A DNA stretch of 64,000 nucleotides from sequence record MN850644.1. One strand, 5' to 3'. This document shows, one piece after another, positions 15,782-43,642 of the stretch; within the stretch, counting starts at the first letter, position 1; the number at the start of each line of letters is the position of its first letter. The notes beneath the pieces were generated by a model, which did not search any database, was not told the origin of the DNA, and worked only from the letters and a program-made list of their open reading frames with translations. The translations under genes and the position numbers were made by a program. This DNA is from Escherichia phage ekra.

Positions 15782-17467
15782 TTAAAGCTGCTTGTCAATA
15801 TTATTTCGAATATCACCAAGAGTTGTGTAACCAAACTGCTCAGAGTCACTAAAGACTAAACGTAAAGCACAAGCTGGGTGGTCAAGTACATCTGCAAAAC
15901 TCTGGAATCCATAGCCATCTACAGCTTTCAGCTTACCACCATCCCACATAGGTGCTACACCACCAAAGGCAGATTTCTTAACACCACTATCTGTTTTAGG
16001 GTCTTTTGCAAGCATAATCTCTTTACCACCAATGCTTGCAAGAGTTGCTTTGACAGCAAATGCAAAGGTGTCACGAGTCATGTACTGGTAAGTGTAAGAA
16101 CCTACGCCAAACACTACGTTAGAGCTTGCAAAACCCATTTCATACAGACGCTTCAGGATTTCGTTTGCACGTTCCAGCGTGATAGAGTCACCATAGATAA
16201 GTCCGATATGCTCATCCAGTACCTTAAACCCTTTAGAGTTAATAGTTCCCCCAAAGATGTTGTACAGTGTCTTAATAGCTCCATCAATCTCAGCTACAGG
16301 ACGTGTTACAACGTTTGCAGAACCAACCATATAAGCATTTTTCAACATCACTGTATCAGCAACTTCAAAGTCTTCTCTGTCAACAACCATTTCGTAGCCT
16401 TCTGACAGTAGCCATCCAGCAATACCATAGTTGATATTTTCAAGCTTCATGTTCAGAACAGCATTCAACATTGTGTCACTGGCTTCCAGCTTGCTTAGGT
16501 GCTCGTAATAAGCCTTTTTAGCACATTCTAAGTGGATTGCTTTATAACCTGTGACAATATGTACAGGGTCTCCAGAGTCAGGACGAATTACCAGTTTGCC
16601 ATCACGTTCCATAATTTCTTTACGAAGTGCTGGTAAAATTTCTGACACAGTTCTCCAGAAGTTATAAGTGTCTGAAACAACACTTGCAATACCAGTTGGG
16701 TAAGTTTCTGTTAAGAAACGACGGAAGGTTTGTAACTCACCTTTAAAGCGTCTTTCTTCTTCAATCAACTCATTACCACCTTCCCAAGCAATGTTTGCAC
16801 ACATTACAGAGTGCTCAGTGGCTGGTACAGAACCACCAATATCAGAGATTGGGTAAGACTGCCCGTAGATGCGTTTAGCTGTATATACAGCAGGGAAGCT
16901 ATCAGTTCCTTTAAAGCTGGTTAAGTGGCCTACAGCATTAAATGCGTCATCAGTAAAGCCGGACATACCACGCATAGCAAAGTCATGGCACTGATAAGGC
17001 AAATGTAAGTCGTTGTCACAAGTAAGGTCAGCCCACTTCTTACAGATACGTTTGTAGTGTAATGCAATAGTTGCAATGGTACAAGCCTTCCAAATCTCAG
17101 CAGAAAAAGCATCTTCCAGATACCCCGCTACCCAATGGAAACCTGAAACAGTGTTCTGGAAGACAATCATTGGCACACGCATAGGGACAACTGTGCCTTC
17201 TTCTACAGCGTATACTTCAACTGGCAGATAACCCAAGTCGTGAAGTGCTTCCCAATGCTCTCGACCGATAGCATCTTTACCCAGAACACCATTCATGACT
17301 TCTAAGATTTCGTCAATTGCTTCTTTTTTATCACGTTCAAAGAAGGTGGCATTCCAATGGTCTATCAAGTAATCTTTAACAAAACGTTGAATACCAAAAG
17401 CCACTACACCGTCAATTGCCAAAGGGCTGTTAAACCATTTGTCGCTACGTGGTGTCAGGTTCAACAT
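15782..17467 (-). CDS. Nicotinamide phosphoribosyltransferase (NAMPT/NadV) family protein; may be a nicotinamide ADP-ribose transferase of a phage NAD+ reconstitution pathway
   Basis: Matches recalled NAMPT motifs: IRPDSGDP, GDS...GVGSY, KDPKTDSGVKKSAFGG; 561 aa. Confidence 0.8.
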   Translation of the reverse strand: MLNLTPRSDKWFNSPLAIDGVVAFGIQRFVKDYLIDHWNATFFERDKKEAIDEILEVMNGVLGKDAIGREHWEALHDLGYLPVEVYAVEEGTVVPMRVPMIVFQNTVSGFHWVAGYLEDAFSAEIWKACTIATIALHYKRICKKWADLTCDNDLHLPYQCHDFAMRGMSGFTDDAFNAVGHLTSFKGTDSFPAVYTAKRIYGQSYPISDIGGSVPATEHSVMCANIAWEGGNELIEEERRFKGELQTFRRFLTETYPTGIASVVSDTYNFWRTVSEILPALRKEIMERDGKLVIRPDSGDPVHIVTGYKAIHLECAKKAYYEHLSKLEASDTMLNAVLNMKLENINYGIAGWLLSEGYEMVVDREDFEVADTVMLKNAYMVGSANVVTRPVAEIDGAIKTLYNIFGGTINSKGFKVLDEHIGLIYGDSITLERANEILKRLYEMGFASSNVVFGVGSYTYQYMTRDTFAFAVKATLASIGGKEIMLAKDPKTDSGVKKSAFGGVAPMWDGGKLKAVDGYGFQSFADVLDHPACALRLVFSDSEQFGYTTLGDIRNNIDKQL

Positions 17468-17579: not shown

Positions 17580-18071
17580 TTAGTTATGTCTTGCAAACTC
17601 ACCATGAAGTTCTATTCGCTTTTTAATTACAGCTTCTTTTGCTTCTTCTACCGTTTTAAATCTTCCACAAAAGTATTCTTTATGGTAAAGCATGACTCTT
17701 GCTTTGTAAAGACCTGTTTGTTTACAAAAACTTACACCCTTCACACCAGTTTTATTATTCTTGTATATACCTCTATTCCTCTGATTTTGTGACTTTGTGC
17801 TAAGTCTTAAATTCTCCAACTTATTATTAGATTTATCAAGGTCTATGTGGTCTATCTCATATCCACTTGGTATCTCACCTCCAGACATAATCCATGCAAT
17901 ATTATGTGCATAGTACCTCTTCTTATTTATCTGGACTTGGATATAACCCTTCTTAGACCTTGTGCCAGCCACATTACCAGCAATAGCGGTACTGCAAAGG
18001 GTTACTCTCCAAATTAATAAACCTGTATCTGGTTCATATATTAGGTATCTTTCAAAATAACCCTTATTCAT
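17580..18071 (-). CDS. Free-standing HNH homing endonuclease with AP2-type DNA-binding domain
   Basis: YAHNIAWIM...EIDHIDLDKSNNKLENLRL (HNH) and NKTGVKGVSF...YKARV (AP2); paralogous to 30369-30869 and 40472-40984. Confidence 0.75.
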   Translation of the reverse strand: MNKGYFERYLIYEPDTGLLIWRVTLCSTAIAGNVAGTRSKKGYIQVQINKKRYYAHNIAWIMSGGEIPSGYEIDHIDLDKSNNKLENLRLSTKSQNQRNRGIYKNNKTGVKGVSFCKQTGLYKARVMLYHKEYFCGRFKTVEEAKEAVIKKRIELHGEFARHN

Positions 18072-18079
18072 ACTGTTAC

Positions 18080-18976
18080 CTAATCAATGTTTGCTACAGT
18101 AACTTGACCATAATGTGTTAAGCCACGGTCTTTAGCTTCTCCTAAAGAGTTTGTAGTGTAGATATGGTCAATACCATTGCCAAGTAAGTTTTCAACCCCT
18201 TTAGAGAAAATGCCATGAGTTACATAGAGTTCCACACGTTTTGCACCTGCTTCACGTAGGTGTTTAGCTGCCTCTACGAAGGTTCGACCACCATCACAGA
18301 TATCATCAAGAATCATGACAGTTTTATCGGTCAAATCAACATCGTCAAGGATTCGCATACCAGTGATTTCTCCAGTCTTAAGATTGCGCACCTTAGACAT
18401 TGTGATATATGGTTTATCCACCTCTTTAGCGGCATCTTCAGTCTTCTTAGCTGCACCTGCATCTGGGGCTACCAAGAAATCAATGCGTGGGTCACTTGCA
18501 AAGTGTACTGCCACATCTTTTTGCTTCATGCTCTGAAAACACTTAAATAAGTTTTCTGCAACATTACTGTGAGGGTCAAGAGCACATACTGCATCAAAAC
18601 CCATTGCATTAACGAGGTTGGCAAAAACTTTCAGTGCTGCTGCATCACCTTTGAACATATGGCGGTCATATCGAGCATTTGGTAAGAACCCGAAAACAAC
18701 GGTTTTCATCGCTGATTTATAGGGAACAAGACTATCAACGGCATCCTTAGCCAAAGCTAATGCAAACAGTGTATCTTTGTCATATCCCTGTACAGTAATT
18801 ATAACATTATCAATCTTACCAGCATTACGCTCAGTAAACTTAACAAAATCTTCAGAGAAGTTTCCACCAATTTCTCCAGATGGGAATTGAATGATATTAA
18901 ATTTTTCTGTGTGGAAGAATTTCTCTTGTGCGGTGACGACGGCTTCAATAACAGTTTTCATAGTTTTCTCTCTCAA
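18080..18976 (-). CDS. Ribose-phosphate pyrophosphokinase (PRPP synthetase, Prs)-like protein; may be an ADP-ribose pyrophosphokinase
   Basis: PRPP-binding-type motif MILDDICDGGRT (DDIxDxGxT); 298 aa; beside NAMPT-like gene. Confidence 0.75.
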   Translation of the reverse strand: MREKTMKTVIEAVVTAQEKFFHTEKFNIIQFPSGEIGGNFSEDFVKFTERNAGKIDNVIITVQGYDKDTLFALALAKDAVDSLVPYKSAMKTVVFGFLPNARYDRHMFKGDAAALKVFANLVNAMGFDAVCALDPHSNVAENLFKCFQSMKQKDVAVHFASDPRIDFLVAPDAGAAKKTEDAAKEVDKPYITMSKVRNLKTGEITGMRILDDVDLTDKTVMILDDICDGGRTFVEAAKHLREAGAKRVELYVTHGIFSKGVENLLGNGIDHIYTTNSLGEAKDRGLTHYGQVTVANID

Positions 18977-29874: not shown

Positions 29875-30372
29875 TCAAGCACAATTTGCTTTCATTACCT
29901 TATGGATTCTTTTTTCAGCATCTTCATAAGTTTCTTTAGTAATAAACTTAATTGCTGCAATATTGGCATTGTAGAAGAGTCTGAGCTTCGAGTCAATCCT
30001 TTTTGTCATTACATCGAATTTATGTTGAAGGTTTGCTTCACCATAGACTAGGCCACCTTTTGTGTAGTAGGTCTGAATAATGTAAAAGTCAAAAAATTCT
30101 TTTCCAAAGCTCTCAATATCTTTTTTAATATACTCAGAAGAAGTCTCGTAAGTCATCCAATCACTCTCCTTAGTGACTACCTTCTTCCGAGTCTTCCCAG
30201 CAACTTTTCTTTTTGTCACACTGTTAAGCTGTTTCTTTCCGATATAATATTGTCCAGTCTTCTTACAGTGCACTAAATAGACAAAGCCAAAATGTTTAGT
30301 GGGGTCAACTTCCCCACATAAAGATACCCAATGACCGTAGGTAGGGCAATTGCCAAATCCTTTAATCTTCAT
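29875..30372 (-). CDS. Possible GIY-YIG-type homing endonuclease
   Basis: FVYLVHCKKTGQYYIGKK resembles the GIY...YIG motif; adjacent to HNH endonuclease. Confidence 0.35.
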   Translation of the reverse strand: MKIKGFGNCPTYGHWVSLCGEVDPTKHFGFVYLVHCKKTGQYYIGKKQLNSVTKRKVAGKTRKKVVTKESDWMTYETSSEYIKKDIESFGKEFFDFYIIQTYYTKGGLVYGEANLQHKFDVMTKRIDSKLRLFYNANIAAIKFITKETYEDAEKRIHKVMKANCA

Positions 30373-30869
30373 TCATAAGCTTCTCCGTGATTTGAAAACT
30401 CTTTATGTAGTTCTTCTCTTTTCTTTGTGACTGCATCTTTGGCATCTTCAATACTGTCAAAATACCCCAGAAAGTGAGATACTCCGTGTGTCATAACTCT
30501 GGCCTTCCATTTTTGGTTAGCCTTATAGAAAGATACACCCTTAACTCCAGATGTGTTGTTGGAGTGTGTTCTTCTATTCCAAGAGTTTTCAGCTTGTGTG
30601 CAAACCCTTAGATTTAATCTCCGATTATCATTAGTAATACCGTTTCGATGGTCTACTCTGTTAGGTAGGAAACCGTCTGTGTACAGGATTGCTAAATCAT
30701 GAGCCATATAGGGTTTTCTTTTAATTTTTATCCTAATATAACCTCGCTTATGTGGTGTACCTGCAATGGAACCTATAACTGTTCTTTTAGCTGATTTCTT
30801 TATCCACGTAAAGACCCCTGTTTCGGGGTCATAGTGTAGATATTCTTTAAGTATCTGCTGAGTCAACAT
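30369..30869 (-). CDS. HNH homing endonuclease with AP2 domain (paralog 2)
   Basis: HYDPETGVFTW, GYIRIKIKRKPYMAHDLAILY, VDHRNGITNDNRRLNLRV, SGVKGVSFYKANQKWKARV; probable start at MLTQQILKEY. Confidence 0.75.
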   Translation of the reverse strand: MLTQQILKEYLHYDPETGVFTWIKKSAKRTVIGSIAGTPHKRGYIRIKIKRKPYMAHDLAILYTDGFLPNRVDHRNGITNDNRRLNLRVCTQAENSWNRRTHSNNTSGVKGVSFYKANQKWKARVMTHGVSHFLGYFDSIEDAKDAVTKKREELHKEFSNHGEAYE

Positions 30870-31893
30870 TTGGAGTCCAACCATACTTTTCAAATGAAAA
30901 AATATCTGATTTATTTCGCTCTTGATAAGCTAGGAAGAAATGCTGTTCCATTAACTCTAACGGCGTCTTTGTAACGGTCTGTCCATCCCATGACACATAG
31001 GTATAAGAGTCTTTTTTAGCATAAAGTTCATAGATAGCGTCAAGACACTCTTTGTAGGTCTCTTTACCCTCTAAAGCATTCATCACAGCTACTTTACCAG
31101 CACCTTTTAGGCCGAAGTAGTTGTCTGCATTATCTCCAGCAACAGCCTGATAACACAAGAATTTAAAACCTACACCAACTGTTTTTGCAGCTTTTGGTTT
31201 TGATTTGATAGGGCAATCCCAGATATTACCAACATTATTATCAGCGATAAAAATTAGTGGTGATTTTTCATAAGTCATATCAATACAATAAGTCCCTTCA
31301 GCTTGTCGAAGGTCTTTGTCAATACTCATAAGAGCAGCTTTCTTACCCATCTTTTCAGCTTTAGCAATTACGATTGAATCGGCTTCGAAGCCCCCCTTTA
31401 AGAGTTTGAACTCTGGTCTTGACAGGAGATACTCACGACAAGCAACTAAGTGTGTTGGTGTGACAGCATCTTTGCGGTTACCTTGATATTGGTGCTCGAG
31501 ACCTTTAATGTCTTTATGTTTATGCACACCTTTCTCTGTTAAATAACCTACCCAAGTTCTCTCTTTACCAACAACCTTAAGCCATTCCTGAAGCACCTGT
31601 TGAGTAGCCATGATAGCTTCTTTTTCACTCTTAGCTTCTTTCCAAGTCTGTCTTTCCCATTCATCTTCATCAAATGTCAGGCCAAGTTCTTCCACAAGGA
31701 TTCTCTGGTCTGCTAACCATCTTGCAGCATCTTTCGCATTATCAAATGGTTCAGATTCTTCTGCTGTGAGTTTATTGACATATTTATATTTTGCTTTCTC
31801 AACTACACAAGCACCTTTATAGGCAATACTGTCAGAGTCAATAAAAACATGTGTAACTGAATCGGGAAGTTTTGTTAATGTGTACTTCTCCAT
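30847..31893 (-). CDS. Putative 5-prime-3-prime exonuclease / flap endonuclease
   Basis: N-terminal VFIDSDSIAYKGA resembles FEN-family N-terminal motif; location in replication module; tentative. Confidence 0.4.
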   Translation of the reverse strand: MEKYTLTKLPDSVTHVFIDSDSIAYKGACVVEKAKYKYVNKLTAEESEPFDNAKDAARWLADQRILVEELGLTFDEDEWERQTWKEAKSEKEAIMATQQVLQEWLKVVGKERTWVGYLTEKGVHKHKDIKGLEHQYQGNRKDAVTPTHLVACREYLLSRPEFKLLKGGFEADSIVIAKAEKMGKKAALMSIDKDLRQAEGTYCIDMTYEKSPLIFIADNNVGNIWDCPIKSKPKAAKTVGVGFKFLCYQAVAGDNADNYFGLKGAGKVAVMNALEGKETYKECLDAIYELYAKKDSYTYVSWDGQTVTKTPLELMEQHFFLAYQERNKSDIFSFEKYGWTPNVDSADT

Positions 31894-36279: not shown

Positions 36280-37080
36280 TTAGTGCAGTTGCTCAGCAGA
36301 CTCTTTTTCAGCCATAGCTGAGATTTGCTTCACAAAATCATCACCGAAGTTAATGCGTAGTTTTTCTTCAATGATTGAAGCACCAATGTTCACCAAAACA
36401 TCATTGATGGCTTGCATACTAACGCCACCAGTCATCTCCTCAATGAACTCAATACTTACACCCATCATCTGTGAAAGTTGGATTAGTGCAACGATATTCA
36501 TCATCGTAGAGATAGCTGGAATCATCAGTGCAACTTTCACCTGAAGTGGTTCTATATCAGCTACAGAGTCATTTTCAACAGCTTCTTCCAAAGAATCTTT
36601 GGTTTGCTGGATAATTTCTTGGATTCGTGGGTTTAGTTCTTCTACCCCCCAATCAAGTTTTTCATATCGTGACAGCTTCTCTTCCATTCGCTTCTCAAGA
36701 GCAGCCATAACAGCACTTGTTGATGAAATTATCATGGAAATTAACTCATTATTACCTAATGACAGTAATAAGTCCTTTTCTTCAGAGTTAAGGGAGATAT
36801 AGTCATTTTTCTGCATCTCCTTAAAAATGAACTCTGCAAGAGCATCAACACCTACGACTATAGATGCTAAAGCAAGTGTAGTGTCTGTCAACATCATGTT
36901 AACCTGTTCTGCAAAAGCACCGTTATCAGACTTGTCTTCAGGCAAGTTATAGCTTGAAGGCATAAACTGTTCTGTGTAGTTGTTCCCACGAAGAATCATA
37001 GCCATGCTTTCTACGGCATTGATTAAAAATGCTTCGTCAATACCTTTTTCTTCAAGCATCTTTTCTACATCGATATTCAT
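36280..37080 (-). CDS. hypothetical acidic protein (266 aa)
   Basis: ORF. Confidence 0.5.
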   Translation of the reverse strand: MNIDVEKMLEEKGIDEAFLINAVESMAMILRGNNYTEQFMPSSYNLPEDKSDNGAFAEQVNMMLTDTTLALASIVVGVDALAEFIFKEMQKNDYISLNSEEKDLLLSLGNNELISMIISSTSAVMAALEKRMEEKLSRYEKLDWGVEELNPRIQEIIQQTKDSLEEAVENDSVADIEPLQVKVALMIPAISTMMNIVALIQLSQMMGVSIEFIEEMTGGVSMQAINDVLVNIGASIIEEKLRINFGDDFVKQISAMAEKESAEQLH

Positions 37081-37081
37081 A

Positions 37082-37504
37082 TTATTTCTCTCTCAGTTGG
37101 TTAAGTTTCTTTCTAGAACATTTTAAGTTTTCGGATGAAGAAAAGTCAAGTGTCTTTTCAGAACGTGGATAATAGTGCCTATCCCAAGAAGTTTCAACAT
37201 CGTTAATCAGTGACGCTAGATTACACAGGTCTGTACCACTTTGCAACCTCTTTTTAAGAGAATCTAGTAAAGCAACTGTGTCTTTAGCTTTACGTCTCGC
37301 TGTAGCAACATCTTTCATATGCTCAAACACAGAGCATTTTAAGTCATCTTCATAGTTTTCAGATAACTCTATTTCGTGTTGTATATCAACCATTCTCCTG
37401 TGATGGTGAGCATATTCCCGTTGAGCAGCAATGTCAAGTTCTTCCAACTTCTGCAAAGCTCTAACAAAGTCAGCTATGTCTGGGTGAACAAACATTTTCT
37501 GCAT
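37082..37504 (-). CDS. hypothetical protein (140 aa)
   Basis: ORF; first gene of the minus-strand block. Confidence 0.5.
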   Translation of the reverse strand: MQKMFVHPDIADFVRALQKLEELDIAAQREYAHHHRRMVDIQHEIELSENYEDDLKCSVFEHMKDVATARRKAKDTVALLDSLKKRLQSGTDLCNLASLINDVETSWDRHYYPRSEKTLDFSSSENLKCSRKKLNQLREK

Positions 37505-37761
37505 GTAAGCCTCTTTTAAGTAACTATTTAGTTTTAATCTTTTATCTTAACGTATTCTATACGTTATACTTTAAAGCTTTTTAAAAGCTATTAAATAATC
37601 TTTTAAGAGTTTTAAAGTATCTGTATAGTTAAACTGTTAAGTAACCTTTTAAGTAAAAACCCACTTCGCAAAGATTAACACCTTGTCAAGTGCATTGTCA
37701 ACTTGCTTTTTATAATTTTTTGCAGTAATGTATGAGGTTAATGATTTTAGAGGGAGTAAAA
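37505..37761. promoter_or_regulatory. Divergent intergenic region at the strand switch; AT-rich, contains duplicated TTGTCAA and TATAAT-like hexamers
   Basis: No ORF; ccttgtcaagtgcattgtcaacttgctttttataatt; genes diverge from here on both strands. Confidence 0.45.
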
Positions 37762-40461
37762 ATGGAAAACGTAGATTTTAAAAACTTACATTTAGTTGGT
37801 GATACAGAAACTGATGGTTTACTCCTTGAGTTCACTAAAGTGCACGTAATGGCTTTCGCAGACTATAAATCTGACGATGAAGAGCCACCTGTATGGGTCT
37901 TTACAGATGAGCCTATCCTCGGTCACAAGTACACTAAGTACATCAAGGGCGGCTTACGTGAAGGTGTTGAATTTGCGTTAAAGGCAAAACGTCTTTGCAT
38001 CCATAATGGTCTCGGCTATGACTGGTGGGTTTTCAATCACATTGCGCCTGATTTATGGAACTTTGATAATCCAAAATGTAAGCCGTGGAGTAATTTCTTT
38101 CAGGATTCTCTTATCCAGTCTCGTGTTCAGTGGATGGATAGGCCAACCCCAAAGGGTTATAAAGGTGCTCATGGTTTGGCTGCATGGGGTGCTCGTGTTG
38201 GTGTCCGTAAACCAGAGATTGAACATTGGGGTGTGTGGAATGCAGAAATCTTCACTCGTGTTGTAGAAGATATCCGTATTAACGCCAAAACTAAACGGGC
38301 ACTTGATAATGAGTATCTCAAGCTTAAGAAGTGTGGCATAGATACTTATGAAACCTATATGCGAGCTAAAGAAACATCTTTCTGGATGAGTCAACAAGCT
38401 ATCAATGGTTGGAAAGCTGATAAGGAGCTTATGGAGTTCCATGTAAAGGAACTTGACAAGTTGACTAATGAGCTTGCTTCAGAGGTTGAACCACATCTTC
38501 CTCCAACTATTAAGACCAAAGGTAAAGTGACTGGAGAAGAGTTTGCAAAAGCTTGGAATGAGTATGTTGAAACATTTGGTCATGCAGATGGACTGAAGAG
38601 GATTACCAAGTACCCTAAGACAAAGTATCGTCAGCAGGTACGTAATGGTGAGATGCAGACATATGAAATCAAGCCATTTGGTAAGCCAACTACAAAGATT
38701 TTTAACATTGAAAAGAGAAATTGCTATACACCAACCAACTCTGTAACTGGTGAAGAGTACAAGGAGGGTTTTGTAGCAATGAAGGATGCTCGTGAAATTT
38801 GCAATGAGTTGAATGCAAAGATTGGTAAGAAATGCAAAGACTGGAAGCCAGTAAAAACAGTCAAAACTGTGAAGTACTATAACAGTCACGTTGTTAACCA
38901 CTTTGAACTTGAGTCAAGTCGCTACACAGGTTTGATTGATGCACCGTATACACCAATTGAGTTTGAAGTTTCTCGTATGACTCAGGTAGCAGTTGTTAAA
39001 GACTACTTGAAATCAGTTGGTTGGATTCCAGATGACTGGAACTACAAGAAAGACTCAGATGGTCGCCCTGTCAAAGTTTGTCGTTTCAAAGACAATAAAA
39101 AGATGATTACAAAACATCCTAAGTGGCAGGAAATGGTTGAGCGGTGTGGTTTGAGCTATGTTGAGCACGAAGGTGTACAGTATATTGAGCATAACTGGTC
39201 TGTGAAGAAGTACACAGATTTGCTTGAGCCTTGCTTAATCCGTACTTCACCAAAACTTACTGAATCATCTTATGATACGATTGAAGGTGAGCTTGGACAG
39301 AAGATTGCGAAATACTACACTTTGATGCACAGACGCAGAACTATTGAGAACTCAAAGGATGATGAAAAAGGTTGGTTGAACCAGATTCGTCCTGATGGTC
39401 GCCTTAGTGCTGGTGCAATGGTGTTTGGTACTTCAACTGGACGTATGACACAATATGGTATTGTAAACGTACCGTCTGGTGCTGCTGTCTATGGGGAACC
39501 AATGAGGGCAGTGTGGATTTGTGAGGAAGGGACTAACGTTGTCTCTGTAGACATGAACTCAGCCCAGCTAGTTCTTCTTTGTAACTTTATGGGTGACAAA
39601 GACTTCACCAAAGCGGTAACGCAAGGTAAAGAAGAGATTGAGTTCATTCGTCAAGAAGATGGACGCTATTACTGCAAACATTTTGATGAGTATCTCAACC
39701 CAGAAATTGATAAGTACCTTCGCTATGACTCTGAGAATGACCTGTACGTTGTCTATTCAGGGACTGATGCACATACACTGAACAGTATTTACTTTAGCTT
39801 GAATGATGAGCAGGATATCTTGACTTGTCGAGCTACTCAGGATGAGAATCTTCTTCATGAGATTAGCAAAGGTCGTAAGAAAGCTAAGAATGGTATCTAT
39901 GCACTGCTGTTCGGTGCAGGTGATGAGAAGTTTGCTAAGACGATTAAAGCTGCAACTACTCAGGAAGGAGCACTGACTAAACAGACTTACTTTATTCGTT
40001 TGCCTAAAATTAAGAAGCTGCTAGATGACTTGGAAGCTGACTACAAAGCAACTAAAAAGGCACTTGAAGAGGTGTTTGGTAAGACTGCTGCAATCTCTAA
40101 AGGGGGTTTTGTAAAGGTTGCTGGAGCTTGGTTGTGGTGTAAATCTCCACATAAGTTATTGAATTATTTGCTCATGGGTTCAGAGGCTCAGATTCAAAAT
40201 GAGGCGATTAACCTTGCTTGTAGAAGAGCATGTGAAGAAGGGTTGACAAAATTAAATGGACGAAAACCAGCAATTGGTGCTAGGCTTTTGCTGGCATACC
40301 ACGATGAAAACAGTTGGGAGTGCCCAGAAAGTATGACTCAAGAAGTTAAAGCCATAACTGACTGGATGTATGGTCAGGCATCTAAGAATTTAGGTTTGAA
40401 GAGTGAGACGCTTGTAACTGGCACAGGTAAGGTTGGTAAGAGCTGGTTGGAAGTGCATTGA
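37762..40461 (+). CDS. DNA polymerase, family A (T7/Pol I-like)
   Basis: Motif A-like SVDMNSAQL, motif B-like KAKNGIYALLFGAG, motif C LLAYHDE; start placed at ATG with GGGAG RBS (MENVDF). Confidence 0.85.
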   Translation: MENVDFKNLHLVGDTETDGLLLEFTKVHVMAFADYKSDDEEPPVWVFTDEPILGHKYTKYIKGGLREGVEFALKAKRLCIHNGLGYDWWVFNHIAPDLWNFDNPKCKPWSNFFQDSLIQSRVQWMDRPTPKGYKGAHGLAAWGARVGVRKPEIEHWGVWNAEIFTRVVEDIRINAKTKRALDNEYLKLKKCGIDTYETYMRAKETSFWMSQQAINGWKADKELMEFHVKELDKLTNELASEVEPHLPPTIKTKGKVTGEEFAKAWNEYVETFGHADGLKRITKYPKTKYRQQVRNGEMQTYEIKPFGKPTTKIFNIEKRNCYTPTNSVTGEEYKEGFVAMKDAREICNELNAKIGKKCKDWKPVKTVKTVKYYNSHVVNHFELESSRYTGLIDAPYTPIEFEVSRMTQVAVVKDYLKSVGWIPDDWNYKKDSDGRPVKVCRFKDNKKMITKHPKWQEMVERCGLSYVEHEGVQYIEHNWSVKKYTDLLEPCLIRTSPKLTESSYDTIEGELGQKIAKYYTLMHRRRTIENSKDDEKGWLNQIRPDGRLSAGAMVFGTSTGRMTQYGIVNVPSGAAVYGEPMRAVWICEEGTNVVSVDMNSAQLVLLCNFMGDKDFTKAVTQGKEEIEFIRQEDGRYYCKHFDEYLNPEIDKYLRYDSENDLYVVYSGTDAHTLNSIYFSLNDEQDILTCRATQDENLLHEISKGRKKAKNGIYALLFGAGDEKFAKTIKAATTQEGALTKQTYFIRLPKIKKLLDDLEADYKATKKALEEVFGKTAAISKGGFVKVAGAWLWCKSPHKLLNYLLMGSEAQIQNEAINLACRRACEEGLTKLNGRKPAIGARLLLAYHDENSWECPESMTQEVKAITDWMYGQASKNLGLKSETLVTGTGKVGKSWLEVH

Positions 40462-40471
40462 TGGTGTTGAA

Positions 40472-40984
40472 ATGATTACAGAAATTCGTCTTAAGGAGCT
40501 ATTGGACTACGACCCCGAAACAGGGGTCTTTACTTGGAAGTTTAGAGAAGGTAATGCAAACTTTAACTCTAGATTTGGAGGTAAGAGGGCTGGAAACTAC
40601 AGAACAAATACTGATGGACACAAGTCAGTTCAGTTGCTGATTGATGGAAGGGGTTACCAAGCAAATCGTTTAGTTATCTTGTATATGGATGGATATCTAC
40701 CTGATAAAACCTTACAGGTTGACCATAAGAATGGGGACGGTTGGGACAATAGGTACTTGAATTTAAGGGTTTGTACAGCTTCACAAAACTCTTGCAATCG
40801 GTCAAGAGAGTCCCCATCTGGGTTGCCAAAAGGTGTACAGAAGATAAGTAAAAGGTTTCGAGCAATGATACGTTTACAAGGTAAAAACTATCATCTTGGT
40901 ATGTTTGACACACCAGAAGAAGCCCATAAAGCTTACTGTGAAGCTGCTATTAAACTCCACGGAGAGTTTGCAAAACTATCTTGA
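40472..40984 (+). CDS. HNH homing endonuclease with AP2 domain (paralog 3), abutting the polymerase gene
   Basis: DYDPETGVFTW, HKSVQLLIDGRGYQANRLV, VDHKNGDGWDNRYLNLRV; probable start at MITEIRLKE. Confidence 0.75.
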   Translation: MITEIRLKELLDYDPETGVFTWKFREGNANFNSRFGGKRAGNYRTNTDGHKSVQLLIDGRGYQANRLVILYMDGYLPDKTLQVDHKNGDGWDNRYLNLRVCTASQNSCNRSRESPSGLPKGVQKISKRFRAMIRLQGKNYHLGMFDTPEEAHKAYCEAAIKLHGEFAKLS

Positions 40985-41035
40985 CAAGGTGCTCAGGGAA
41001 GAGTACCTTATACAATATCTTGTATAGGAGGACTT

Positions 41036-41245
41036 ATGAGCCATCGTGGAAGAACCCATGCAGCGATGATGAAAGGCGCTTCAAAGGAAACTATCAAGAA
41101 CCGTAAGCAGAAGTTGTTTGAGAGAATGAACAGGTTAATTGACAATTCATCTCTTTCAGGTTCTGAGAAGGTTTTCTTGAAAGGTAATCTGAAAAGCATT
41201 GCACAAGAACTTATTGACATTGAGTATTGGAGACATCAAAAATGA
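41036..41245 (+). CDS. hypothetical protein (69 aa)
   Basis: ORF. Confidence 0.4.
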   Translation: MSHRGRTHAAMMKGASKETIKNRKQKLFERMNRLIDNSSLSGSEKVFLKGNLKSIAQELIDIEYWRHQK

Positions 41246-41454
41246 CACTTGCAGACGTTATCCAACAACTTCATGATAACTGCTATACTCCAGAGTTGAT
41301 TCAGGAGATGCTTATTGTAGTGATGCCTAGTAAGTTCGTAAAAGGTTTTAATAATGACTCTTTAAGGTCTGCGCATATCCTTATTGTTGATGGTAAGATT
41401 GCAAGGGACCGTACTGGAGTCCTTAAGGGCGAACGTATTAATATTAACCTCTGA
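41227..41454 (+). CDS. hypothetical protein (75 aa)
   Basis: ORF. Confidence 0.4.
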   Translation: METSKMTLADVIQQLHDNCYTPELIQEMLIVVMPSKFVKGFNNDSLRSAHILIVDGKIARDRTGVLKGERININL

Positions 41455-41641
41455 ATATTGGAGATACCGAAAATGAAACGCAAAGTTAAGTTTTTTAATT
41501 TATATGGAAGAGTTGGTAAAGGTTTTGACTGGCAACTGTTACGCTCAAATGTTAAAAGCAATGAATTAGCACCACTTATCATTCATTATCGACGTACATA
41601 CAGAGAAGTAGAGCATCGTGAACAGTAAACAGGGGTGTATT

Positions 41642-41878
41642 ATGTGGAAATCAGTAATTGCGCTTGGTGTTATTTTTCTATCTGGCTGCAACCCTTCTTA
41701 TGAAGATAAAAATGCTTCTTACAGCCTCCCACCAGAGATGCAAGATTGCAGAGTATACAAGTTACATGGTGATGCTATAAGCAGAGATATTGTTGTTGTC
41801 AGATGTCCAAACTCCCAAACAACAACATCTTATAGCTATGGCAAAAATGGTCAATCACACACTACGGTTATTGAGTGA
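41642..41878 (+). CDS. Small lipoprotein candidate
   Basis: MWKSVIALGVIFLSGC: signal peptide with lipobox LSGC. Confidence 0.45.
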   Translation: MWKSVIALGVIFLSGCNPSYEDKNASYSLPPEMQDCRVYKLHGDAISRDIVVVRCPNSQTTTSYSYGKNGQSHTTVIE

Positions 41879-41888
41879 GGGTTTCACG

Positions 41889-42095
41889 ATGGAAGTCCTA
41901 GTAAACTATATCTATTGTTATGATGTTGTTCACTCTACTACAACGGTAGCTCAACGTAACCCAATCGTCCCACGAGAAGGTGAGTTGGTTCGCATTGATG
42001 GTTGGACTTACACTGTGGAAAGCATCATTCATAAGTTTGATGTTGCTGGTGATGTTCAAGTTATTGACGTAGAAATTGGTGGCAAGAGGAAATGA
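41889..42095 (+). CDS. hypothetical protein (about 69 aa)
   Basis: ORF starting MEVLVNYIY. Confidence 0.35.
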   Translation: MEVLVNYIYCYDVVHSTTTVAQRNPIVPREGELVRIDGWTYTVESIIHKFDVAGDVQVIDVEIGGKRK

Positions 42096-42283
42096 ACAAA
42101 GAAGATAAGCATAAAAATGCTGTACGGACTCCTGATGGAAAGATTCAGTCCTTCGTCCTGACAGTTGGTGGAAAGCCATTTCGTTGCCACTGCGGAGCAA
42201 ACTGTTTTCATAAACCAGATAAAAATGACTTAGAGCTTTACGCATGTAATGCTTGCAATACTTGGTATCACTCAGAGGAATAA
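42092..42283 (+). CDS. Small zinc-ribbon protein
   Basis: CHCGANC ... CNACN cysteine pairs. Confidence 0.4.
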   Translation: MNKEDKHKNAVRTPDGKIQSFVLTVGGKPFRCHCGANCFHKPDKNDLELYACNACNTWYHSEE

Positions 42284-42285
42284 AA

Positions 42286-43389
42286 ATGACAATCCTATAC
42301 AAACAAAATAAAGATGGCTCTTTCAACGTCTGGTCATGCGTTGCTGTAGGTGACAAAGTTATTACAACCTATGGTAAAGAAAATGGCAAGATGATGTTTG
42401 AAGAGTACACAGCAGAACCGAAAAACATCGGTAAAAAGAATGAGCGTAACGCTGAACAGCAAGCTCTCTTTGAAGTTGCTGCTAAGTATAAAAAGCAAGT
42501 TGACCGTAAAGGCTACGCTTACACAAAAGAGTCTGCAAAGAATACTGAGAAAGTAGGTGTACAACTTGCTCATGATGCTGCAAAGGTTAGTCATGCAAAG
42601 TATCTGAAGTTCCCTGCTGATGCTCAACCAAAACTTGATGGTGTACGTTGTAGAATTTCAAGACACTTAAGTATTGGCAGTGTATTTACAGCATATTCTC
42701 GTGAGAATACTGTTTACAAAATCCCTACTGAACTAATACCTGACATTATGGCAATGTTAAGGCTCCACAAAGATGTTGATGAATTTGATGGAGAGATTTA
42801 TGCTCATGGGTGGGACTTAGAAGATATTGTCTCCATGATTAAAAATGAAGACAATCCTGACAGACACTTACTTAAGTTCTACTGGTATGATATCTGTGAC
42901 AGTACTAAAACGTGGCCTGAGCGTAGAGATATTATTGAGACTTCACCATTGAATGACTTTAGAGACGGCTGTAAAGTTGTCCCTGTTAAATCTCGTCGTG
43001 TAAATTCTTGGGAAGAGTTTGATGAAGCTCATGATAAGTGGGTTGAAGCTAAGTTTGAAGGTGCAATGTACCGTTCAATCTCTGAAGAATCTTTCTACGA
43101 GTGTTGTCACCGTTCATACTTCTTGATTAAGCACAAGAAGATGCACACTGAAGAGTTTAAAGTGACTGGTGTAAAGACCGATAAACGTGGTCATGGTAAG
43201 TTCGTTGTAGAGACTCTTCCTAACGTCTTTGTAGATGTTTCATGGAAGACTACTCACGAGAAGAAACAGTATCTTGCTGAACACCCTGAAGAGTTTATCG
43301 GGAAACCTTTAACGGTTCAGTTCCAGAAGATGACTCGTAAGGGGTCTTTACAGTTCCCTGTAGGGCTAGTTATTAGGGATTATGAATAA
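42286..43389 (+). CDS. ATP-dependent DNA ligase
   Basis: Adenylation motif I KLDGVRC; size about 367 aa as in T7-type ligases. Confidence 0.7.
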   Translation: MTILYKQNKDGSFNVWSCVAVGDKVITTYGKENGKMMFEEYTAEPKNIGKKNERNAEQQALFEVAAKYKKQVDRKGYAYTKESAKNTEKVGVQLAHDAAKVSHAKYLKFPADAQPKLDGVRCRISRHLSIGSVFTAYSRENTVYKIPTELIPDIMAMLRLHKDVDEFDGEIYAHGWDLEDIVSMIKNEDNPDRHLLKFYWYDICDSTKTWPERRDIIETSPLNDFRDGCKVVPVKSRRVNSWEEFDEAHDKWVEAKFEGAMYRSISEESFYECCHRSYFLIKHKKMHTEEFKVTGVKTDKRGHGKFVVETLPNVFVDVSWKTTHEKKQYLAEHPEEFIGKPLTVQFQKMTRKGSLQFPVGLVIRDYE

Positions 43390-43642
43390 ACTATGTTCAG
43401 TACAGTCATTCTGTTTATACTGGTTGTCTTTGTATTGTCATACGTTGCAAGTAAGCTTTTGGACACATCTTTTGCAATGGGTGTCTTGTTTACAATCTTT
43501 TGTTTCGTGACACATATAGCTATCAGAACTTTTTTATAAAAAGTTGTTGACATAGAAAATTTGGTGAGTATACTGAGCAGCATAAACCAACGGGTACTCA
43601 CCAACATCACTTAAGAGTCTTTGAAAAGGGTTTTTTAAGTGA

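Follow-up and report, generated by a model that had tools for sequence, protein, structure and literature searches.

HNH-AP2 homing endonucleases are reportedly a family dealt with by Magnani et al. in 2004. Their genes are a recognised family of homing endonuclease genes (HEGs), as stated in a more recent study (Barth et al. 2023; PMC10448857). According to that study, genes for the 'IPA-HNH' proteins are free-standing in phage genomes and encode an N-terminal HNH domain followed by a C-terminal AP2 domain, 29% of them adjoin DNA polymerase genes, and a different HEG can take the place of the cognate one at a given position. The endonuclease described below is likewise free-standing, with the same order of domains, although the ICP1-type IPA-HNH domains are too divergent for Pfam HNH_3, which the Felixounavirus protein matches directly. 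The closest solved structure by sequence is that of I-HmuI (PDB 1U3E; E 0.0017 with the single sequence and 3.5e-7 with a profile), the HNH endonuclease of the DNA polymerase intron of Bacillus phage SPO1, so that a link with a polymerase gene is common to both. I-HmuI is a strand-specific nicking enzyme. It is, however, encoded within an intron and has a C-terminal helix-turn-helix, whereas the endonuclease here is free-standing, has an AP2 domain and is not associated with an intron. In the general model of intronless homing, the endonuclease-free allele is cleaved within the adjacent gene or close to it. The T4 genes segA–G and mobE resemble the present case in that they lie between conserved genes, are absent from close relatives and have flanking markers that are co-converted. 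The Seg proteins are nevertheless GIY-YIG enzymes and MobE lacks an AP2 domain and, whereas activity and homing have been demonstrated for SegA–G and MobE, the HNH-AP2 endonuclease here is known from sequence alone.

The window (the whole stretch of DNA that was analysed, 64,000 nt) comes from a Felixounavirus, i.e. a FelixO1-like phage. On its plus strand lies a Family A DNA polymerase gene (37732..40461), identified from the list of open reading frames, a Pfam DNA_pol_A match (1.2e-15) and the annotation of relatives: the CDS is labelled DNA polymerase in the GenBank records of JK55, E9 and SP3, and the JK55 annotation starts it at an internal Met at about 37762. The polymerase stop codon, TGA, is read directly at 40459-40461. 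The endonuclease ORF in its maximal form (40433..40984, same strand, 183 aa) begins with TTG, and the ORF coordinates and the sequence together bear out the preliminary description, in which this ORF overlapped the polymerase stop by 29 nt (40433-40461). That description placed the true start at the Met of MITEIRLKE, at about 40472; the first in-frame ATG does occupy 40472-40474, exactly 10 nt past the polymerase stop, and both the insert-free alleles and the homologues agree with it, the latter starting at the equivalent Met whether they lie at the polymerase locus or elsewhere. The TTG at 40433 is polymerase sequence that is also present in empty alleles, because the junction described below follows a polymerase His codon. 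The gene, a putative free-standing HNH-AP2 homing endonuclease gene of what we call class A, accordingly runs from 40472 to 40984 and encodes 170 aa, an assignment based on the ORFs, Pfam, the match with JK55 and dN/dS. Its own stop codon, TGA (40982-40984), falls within a TTGACA box downstream, and its Shine-Dalgarno sequence is poor. A hairpin occluding the ribosome-binding site was considered and rejected, the start-codon region folding no better than shuffled controls (z = +1.4). The right-hand neighbour, in empty and occupied alleles alike, is a small conserved gene of 69 aa (41036..41245, plus strand), recognised from the ORF list, the comparison of alleles and a match to phrog_5180. The endonuclease gene thus lies between two conserved genes, interrupting neither the polymerase gene nor the next transcription unit.

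The preliminary description proposed a search for insert-free alleles among related phages, and these proved to be common. The joined GenBank matches mix empty, small-gene and endonuclease-bearing alleles, and the count of empty alleles was taken from a comparison set of 36 sequences, 16 of them empty and 20 occupied. In the empty alleles only 3-6 nt separate the polymerase stop from the conserved TTGACA box, the precise junction being ...GTN CAC TAA TTAGTA TTGACAAGG... (16/36 sequences); in E9 or wV8, for example, the sequence is ...GCTGGCTTGAAGTACACTAATTAGTATTGACAAGGTGCTCA.... Alignment with the empty alleles of E9 and SP3, along with the junctions in the 36 sequences, defines the insert as 40458..40980 (plus strand), i.e. 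523 nt in place of the 10 nt 'C TAA TTAGTA', a net gain of 513 nt. Its boundaries are identical across the occupied alleles, where the gap between the polymerase stop and the TTGACA box has been filled. The gene must be dispensable, since 16 of the 36 close relatives do without it, their replication genes being otherwise near-identical. Two paralogs of the endonuclease elsewhere in the window are also insertions relative to JK55. That endonucleases recur at polymerase genes, as had been remarked from the sequence, is documented in the family study (PMC10448857), and there are relatives in which the polymerase gene itself is split by a different HNH ORF.

The 20 occupied sequences carry one of four HNH-AP2 classes, with 40-57% protein identity between classes. 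JK55 has, at the same locus and with the same orientation and boundaries, a protein identical to the class A endonuclease here (QEG06753.1). FelixO1 ORF95 (Felix01p176, NP_944955.1), from a genome with six HNH genes (PMC3185647), shares the locus, the orientation, the boundaries from polymerase stop to TTGACA and the HNH-AP2 architecture, but is a class D allele with about 43% protein identity to class A; the two genes have in common the arms of a palindrome and the last ~70 nt, to which we return below. Endonuclease class and polymerase backbone are not congruent. Between the class A allele of the window and a class B allele (L005), the endonucleases are 47% identical and the polymerase genes 93-100% identical per 100-nt window of the alignment; another allele (L007) combines a class A endonuclease (94% protein identity) with a polymerase gene of roughly 73-94% identity. 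Different classes are therefore found on near-identical polymerases and one class on diverged ones.

At a coverage of at least 80%, the endonuclease gene is shared by 27 phage records in GenBank, and its dN/dS within class A is 0.14-0.18 (about 0.15); for these reasons it is not a chance ORF, and it is under purifying selection. All 20 occupied sequences have an intact ORF, free of frameshifts and stops. The CDS of JK55 to which it is 100% identical is annotated 'HNH homing endonuclease'. The gene is in this sense an ordinary, already annotated selfish nuclease, an element of a known kind, and the HNH-AP2 family and its habit of adjoining polymerase genes have already been published. The finding of a homing endonuclease as such consequently adds little.

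The HNH and AP2 architecture, first suggested by inspection of the sequence, is borne out by Pfam, by a family profile, by the alignment with I-HmuI and by fold matches. The protein matches Pfam HNH_3 (PF13392) with E 5.4e-12 (45.6 bits against a cut-off of 24.8), as do all 11 aligned family members, and phrog_99, 'HNH endonuclease', at 6.7e-60. The HNH_3 (His-Me finger) nuclease domain, defined by Pfam, the alignment with 1U3E and conserved columns, comprises residues 63-107 (40658..40792, plus strand). Within it D84-H85, N97 and N106 align with D74-H75, N87 and N96 of I-HmuI, which are the Asp-His general base pair, the structural Asn and the metal-ligand Asn, respectively. All alleles have D84, H85 and N97, and class A has N106 as well; in the class C alleles at the polymerase locus Ser replaces the Asn that is aligned to the metal ligand. 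The catalytic residues of the class A endonuclease are thus intact, and membership of the HNH_3/I-HmuI-like His-Me finger nucleases is predicted from the model match and the residues. The AP2 DNA-binding domain occupies residues ~116-166 (40817..40969, plus strand), as judged from profile matches, Pfam and a structure model. As a single sequence the endonuclease scores below the Pfam AP2 cut-off (E 6.5e-6; 26.8 bits against 33.3), but AP2 (PF00847) is matched by 11/11 aligned family members (best 2.7e-14), and the family profile matches the AP2 domain of plant WRI1 at 7.9e-10, and those of TEM1 and ERF proteins as well. An AF2 model built from the three paralogs of the window is of low confidence (mean pLDDT 62.6). 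Its AP2 part has strands 122-125, 128-135 and 138-145 and helix 148-164 (block means of pLDDT 70-88), and its nuclease part, where a beta-beta-alpha-metal fold would be expected, strands 81-86 and 97-102 and helix 103-109 (block means 50-60). The best fold matches to this low-confidence model in Foldseek are plant AP2 domains (rmsd 0.7-1.3 A, weak E-values); the AP2 part alone was recovered, with no nuclease match.

The occupied alleles differ from the empty ones not only in the insert. A step in divergence from the empty alleles marks a diverged 3'-terminal polymerase haplotype (40150..40461, plus strand) that is linked to the endonuclease gene. Its left edge is at about 40150-40220, 240-310 nt before the insert; to the left of this change point the polymerase differs from empty alleles by 2-3.6%, to the right by 24-27%, and directly to the right of the insert 97-100% identity is restored. 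Relative to one empty allele (L012), there are 75 nt and 12 aa differences over the final 300 nt of the polymerase. The haplotype of the window is shared by occupied alleles of class A (L004) and class B (L005). In an association test, to be read with the proviso that the genomes are related and non-independent, occupancy goes most closely with positions -15 and -4 from the polymerase stop, i.e. within the last 15 nt; C at -15 occurs in 12/14 empty alleles and 0/17 occupied alleles. The connection with the neighbouring polymerase gene that the preliminary description raised has therefore held up: a sharply diverged 3' haplotype accompanies the insert, and its most strongly associated sites adjoin it. 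The tract looks like a co-conversion tract, and the pattern is consistent with an allele that was cut and repaired at the polymerase 3' end or close to it. It could instead stem from ordinary recombination with a distant phage, requiring no nuclease activity. Whatever the origin of this recombinant tract, the last ~300 nt of the polymerase gene should be masked where it serves as a marker in phage phylogeny and taxonomy.

A precise, site-specific junction and a linked flanking tract are what homing predicts, and we think it probable that 40472-40984 is a free-standing HEG of the HNH-AP2 family that spreads by intronless homing. The gene would be co-transcribed with the polymerase gene and, given its poor Shine-Dalgarno sequence and its start 10 nt past the polymerase stop, would be weakly translated. 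In a co-infected cell the endonuclease may bind an endonuclease-free allele through its AP2 and N-terminal domains and nick or cut it near the junction of polymerase stop and TTGACA box, a sequence that the insertion itself breaks up. The lesion would then be repaired by recombination, with the HEG-carrying genome as template, so that the gene and a variable part of the polymerase 3' end are copied across. Such a target site is deduced solely from the positions at which the alleles differ. The distribution of alleles is observed, and horizontal spread would be the process behind it; the series of four classes could in part reflect old residence at the locus and loss in some lineages instead of repeated invasion. 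In the literature we found no Felixounavirus HNH-AP2 gene for which cleavage, nicking or super-Mendelian inheritance had been reported, and no experimental characterisation of FelixO1 ORF95 or of the JK55 CDS. The locus offers a natural test bed, in that related culturable coliphages and Salmonella phages are either empty or carry one of four classes at a nucleotide-precise site; crosses among them would permit the study of intronless homing, of co-conversion into an essential gene and of competition between endonuclease classes.

A rather unlikely alternative is that the nuclease is a resident kept for the benefit of the phage, perhaps to shut out or degrade relatives that infect the same cell, perhaps for a part in replication or recombination; its variable presence would then mean that ordinary recombination has added it in some lineages and removed it in others. 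The purifying selection suits this view, as do the constant position immediately behind the polymerase gene, within the replication module, and the persistence of several classes at one locus. Barth et al. moreover regard such nucleases as boundary markers of genetic exchange that may benefit cargo genes (PMC10448857). A resident function is, however, hard to reconcile with the absence of the gene from 16 of 36 close relatives whose replication genes are otherwise near-identical, and both the exact junction and the linked tract are as expected of homing. Excluding competitors by cutting is, besides, the same mechanistic act as homing, the difference lying mainly in the beneficiary. Homing endonuclease genes commonly degenerate once fixed, and the gene could accordingly be a decaying or inactive remnant, inherited vertically and by hitch-hiking with the polymerase gene. 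The Ser of class C in place of the Asn aligned to the metal ligand and the weak ribosome-binding site point that way, but class A retains D84, H85, N97 and N106, dN/dS is 0.14-0.18, none of the 20 occupied sequences has a frameshift or stop, and the homing cycle is unfinished, since the site is still polymorphic; we consider a remnant distinctly improbable.

Phage HNH proteins are often terminase cofactors, and the gene for I-HmuI itself resides in an intron of a polymerase gene. It is nevertheless very improbable that the protein here is associated with packaging, like HK97 gp74, or that it is a nuclease encoded by an intron or intein of the polymerase gene. The gene begins past the polymerase stop and is read in a different frame; empty alleles, which lack the endonuclease gene, have a complete polymerase ORF; no group I or II intron model matches 37000-43500; and HNH_3 with AP2 is the architecture of homing endonucleases. 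The intron reading was rejected: Rfam, searched for introns and other RNAs over 37000-43500 with E values up to 1, gave no match, and the polymerase ORF ends, complete, before the endonuclease gene. The terminase-associated HNH proteins are small, lie beside the terminase or portal genes and lack a separate DNA-binding domain, which is contradicted by the AP2 domain and by the location in the replication module; in FelixO1 the terminase gene is ~30 kb off (30.6 kb, against 60.3 kb for ORF95).

Two features of the nucleotide sequence of the endonuclease gene merit attention. One is a perfect palindrome in the 5' coding region, GACCCC-GAAACA-GGGGTC (40511..40528, plus strand; codons D-P-E-T-G-V), 39 nt from the start of the ORF. 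All four classes have the same arms but differ in the loop. GACCCC-N6-GGGGTC is matched twice in the 64,000-nt window (0.02 expected), the second time in paralog 1, and the whole FelixO1 genome likewise has only two matches, both inside HNH-AP2 genes. The four arm codons have an expected frequency of 1.1e-4 on the window's own codon usage, and include rare ones (CCC, 4% of Pro; GGG, 9% of Gly; GTC, 9% of Val). The palindrome does not extend to the HNH-AP2 family at large: of 42 homologous genes from outside Felixounavirus, sampled without codon bias, none has it perfect and four have 5 of the 6 pairs. Nor is a classical intrinsic terminator supported; a scan flagged the palindrome as terminator-like, but the classes do not share its T-tract. 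A function at the nucleic-acid level is possible, for example as an attenuator hairpin, which would terminate polymerase transcripts and limit the amount of nuclease, or as an operator in which two inverted G4/C4 tracts are bound by AP2 for autoregulation, by analogy with I-TevI.

The other feature is the final ~70 nt of the gene (40911..40980, plus strand), which nucleotide and codon comparison found to be near-identical in the four classes. Between classes A and B the codons of shared residues are identical in 20/22 cases within the last 24 codons, as against 25/52 elsewhere in the gene. Protein constraint was rejected as the cause: paralogs at other loci have a similar C-terminal peptide with a different nucleotide sequence in this segment, and synonymous sites are homogenised there alone. 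The segment is probably a right arm homogenised by recombination. It is possible, though we advance this only tentatively, that the polymerase-locus endonuclease genes of Felixounaviruses constitute a multi-allelic, exchangeable cassette whose cis-acting ends are conserved, namely the palindrome and the homogenised last 70 nt, the latter being a right-hand homology arm that may let one class replace another. The accessible parts of the literature on the HNH-AP2 family contain no mention that we could find of the shared 70-nt 3' end or the conserved palindrome.

The element that borders the insert on the right, TTGACA-N17-TACCTT (40981..41009, plus strand), is conserved in empty and occupied alleles. 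It is termed promoter-like only, because a strict sigma-70 scan called no promoter at the TTGACA box. Its spacer contains an 8-bp inverted repeat (AGGTGCTC at 40987-40994 and GAGTACCT at 41001-41008), which folds with z = -2.8 and is kept in distant relatives (L031/L032) through two compensatory pair changes.

Over the 4.6 kb round the endonuclease gene, the window shares 99.4% identity with Felixounavirus NRG857CP1 and 98.4% with Shigella phage JK55, in which an identical ORF is annotated as 'HNH homing endonuclease'. This region matched 262 phage records, nearly all of them FelixO1-like, with Escherichia, Salmonella, Shigella or Citrobacter as hosts. Upstream lies a family A DNA polymerase gene (37732..40461, +; 909 codons, with a domain match) that ends in TGA at 40459-40461. 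The six-frame endonuclease ORF (40433..40984, +; 183 codons) begins before this stop, giving the 29-nt overlap reported in the preliminary description, in which every coordinate proved exact. The start that it proposed, MITEIRLKE, is the first in-frame ATG (40472), 10 nt past the polymerase stop. The TTG at 40433 belongs to polymerase sequence that is also present in alleles with no endonuclease gene, and homologues at this locus and elsewhere start at the methionine equivalent to 40472. In one diverged version of the gene (class B, see below) the start instead overlaps the polymerase stop by one base (ATGA). A GGTG placed 5 nt before the start is the sole Shine-Dalgarno-like sequence, and folding of the start region revealed no start-hiding hairpin. 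We infer from the sequence that the gene would be co-transcribed with the polymerase gene and weakly translated.

The gene is absent in phages E9 and SP3, which read ...GTN CAC TAA TTAGTA TTGACAAGGTGCTCA... and in which 6 nt separate the polymerase stop from a conserved TTGACA box; relative to them, 10 nt are replaced in the window by 523 nt (40458-40980). Comparison of polymerase 3' regions, the route suggested earlier for finding insert-free relatives, set the window beside 32 loci from IMG/VR and three from GenBank, 36 sequences in all. The site is empty in 16 of them, with a stop-to-box gap of 3-6 nt, and occupied in 20. An HNH-AP2 ORF fills the interval between polymerase stop and TTGACA box in 20/20 occupied sites, and its stop codon is in each case the TGA of the box. 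As the ORF fills only this interval, it interrupts neither the polymerase ORF nor the element downstream. The gene probably encodes a free-standing HNH-AP2 homing endonuclease that would spread by intronless homing, with a putative target at or near the polymerase-stop/TTGACA junction, which the insertion disrupts.

Several patterns point to horizontal transfer of the gene. The polymerase genes of the window (class A) and of IMG/VR locus L005 (class B) are 93-100% identical per 100-nt window, and locus L007 has a class A gene (94% protein identity) next to a polymerase gene whose identity per 100-nt window is roughly 73-94%. Compared with empty alleles, the window polymerase gene is 2-3.6% diverged up to a change point at about 40150-40220, and 24-27% diverged from there to its stop codon; the last 300 nt contain 75 nucleotide and 12 amino-acid differences. 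This 3' haplotype is common to L004 (class A) and L005 (class B), and to the right of the endonuclease gene identity returns at once to 97-100%. The polymorphisms most tightly tied to occupancy lie at -15 from the polymerase end (C in 12/14 empty and 0/17 occupied alleles) and at -4 (CAC versus CAT), an association that is not a formal probability because the genomes are related. Endonuclease class also co-varies with the last five polymerase codons. The tract and the occupancy pattern are what one would expect if repair had copied the gene together with part of its flank.

Occupied sites fall into four classes, A (the window), B, C and D (FelixO1 ORF95), with 40-57% protein identity between classes. 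They are mosaics: nucleotide identity to the window gene is 25-60% over most of the gene, up to 78-93% around codons 13-20, and 90-100% in all four classes at the 3' end (40911-40980, ~70 nt). Between A and B, 20 of the 22 shared-residue codons among the last 24 are nucleotide-identical, against 25 of 52 in the rest of the gene; synonymous sites are homogenised in the last ~70 nt. Paralogs at other loci have a similar but different C-terminus, so the shared 3' end reflects locus-specific homogenisation rather than protein constraint. It is most simply explained by recombination, and suggests that 40911-40980 could serve as a recombination arm when one class replaces another. Class C (L006, L014, L020) has serine in place of class A N106, which aligns with a metal-ligand asparagine of I-HmuI; this class may represent altered or inactive nucleases persisting at the site.

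The 170-aa product matches Pfam HNH_3 over the cut-off (E 5.4e-12), and its AP2 score as a single sequence is 26.8 bits, under the cut-off of 33.3. A family profile derived from an alignment of eleven members, both alleles and paralogs, matches the AP2 domain of Arabidopsis WRI1 (7.9e-10), I-HmuI (3.5e-7) and the AP2 domains of TEM1 and ERF, and Pfam AP2 is matched by 11/11 members; the HNH-AP2 architecture assigned at the outset is therefore upheld, its AP2 part through the family. Among solved structures, I-HmuI (1U3E) is closest to the nuclease part: its D74-H75, N87 and N96 are aligned with D84-H85, N97 and N106 here, and D84, H85 and N97 do not vary across the aligned family. An AlphaFold model, with the three window paralogs as input, was poor overall (pLDDT 62.6). 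Its C-terminal domain is confidently predicted as three strands and a helix, and among PDB folds it is matched best by plant AP2 domains (rmsd 0.7-1.3 Å). The family is very common, with tblastn matches in 1604 phage records (E up to 1e-10). Within class A, dN/dS is 0.14-0.18, which shows that selection maintains the protein.

That low ratio, together with the intact catalytic residues and the continuing polymorphism of the site, makes it quite improbable that the gene is an inactive remnant of an endonuclease. A self-serving resident nuclease, which differs from homing mainly in who benefits, is unlikely, though less so than a remnant. Readings as an intron, an intein or a terminase cofactor are contradicted by the alignment of empty alleles, by an Rfam search of 37000-43500 that gave no match and by the gene positions in FelixO1, and have hardly any probability left.

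HNH-AP2 homing endonucleases have been described as a family (Magnani et al. 2004, via PMC10448857). The accessible text of Barth et al. 2023 (PMC10448857) places 29% of such genes near DNA polymerase genes, in line with the recurrence claimed in the preliminary description, and states that cognate positions may be occupied by endonuclease genes that are related, unrelated or of a different class. Since both the family and its polymerase-adjacent habit are published, the polymerase-locus gene is an element of a known kind, already annotated as such. Six HNH homing endonuclease genes have been reported for the FelixO1 genome (PMC3185647). ORF95 occupies the same place as the window's polymerase-locus gene, and further HNH genes lie behind the exonuclease gene and between PRPP synthetase and nadV; these three positions are those of the three HNH-AP2 genes of the window.

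The second window gene (30369-30869, -; ~40-46% protein identity by tblastn and MAFFT) overlaps the 3' end of an exodeoxyribonuclease gene (30847..31893, -). It has a homologue in the same place in FelixO1, ORF106, and JK55 has 54 nt where the window carries the inserted segment 30378-30923. The third (17580-18071, -; ~31% identical) is flanked by genes for ribose-phosphate pyrophosphokinase (18080..18976, -) and nicotinamide phosphoribosyltransferase (15782..17467, -), and is likewise an insertion relative to JK55 (17580-18082 against 32 nt).

A perfect palindrome, GACCCC-N6-GGGGTC (40511-40528; codons D-P-E-T-G-V), lies 39 nt into the polymerase-locus gene, and a copy (30813-30830) lies 39 nt into the second HNH-AP2 gene; the third is without it (GAACCAGATACAGGTTTA). 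Across the four classes the arms, written in rare codons, are invariant and the loop is variable. The window has two copies against 0.02 expected, and the whole FelixO1 genome also has only two, both in HNH-AP2 genes. Given window codon usage (GAC 38%, CCC 4%, GGG 9%, GTC 9%), these codons would be expected together with a chance of ~1e-4 per lineage. The perfect palindrome occurred in 0/42 homologues from other phages, a codon-unbiased sample; a scan directed at the palindrome itself located it in a few further contig types, within HNH-AP2 genes (37/51 matches). Selection as a nucleic-acid element seems the likeliest explanation, and candidate roles include those of an attenuator hairpin and of an operator bound by the AP2 domain. 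The literature examined on these elements contains no description of this conserved palindrome, of the four-class series with its common 3' arm or of the mapped polymerase 3' tract, which are modest additions to the known picture.

Downstream of the gene, the segment 40981-41035 holds a conserved promoter-like element, TTGACA-N17-TACCTT, whose spacer contains an 8-bp inverted repeat. Two pairs of this repeat differ on both sides in the distant relatives L031/L032, with pairing retained, and the element folds better than shuffled controls (z = -2.8). A strict promoter scan made no call at TTGACA-N17-TACCTT. Its possible roles are those of a regulated promoter and of a structured leader. After it, in the same segment, comes a second hairpin, TATACAA-TATC-TTGTATA, directly ahead of the AGGAGG of the next gene.

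The small-ORF block between the polymerase and ligase genes (41036-42250) varies in comparison with L003, L008, L013 and L017: a 69-aa MSHRGRTH gene is present or absent among relatives, and some have an extra MTLSEIEVQLQ ORF. In several GenBank relatives the annotation places a homing endonuclease between two ligase CDSs. In the relatives L021 (3241-4004) and L022, the polymerase gene is interrupted, by an intron or as a true split gene, after KKAKNGIYA, directly before the conserved LFGAG, which we take to be polymerase motif B; the interruption contains an ORF of 160 aa whose HNH motif is of the endonuclease-VII type (VVDHDHKTGKVRGMLCHNCN). At this site the window polymerase gene is continuous.
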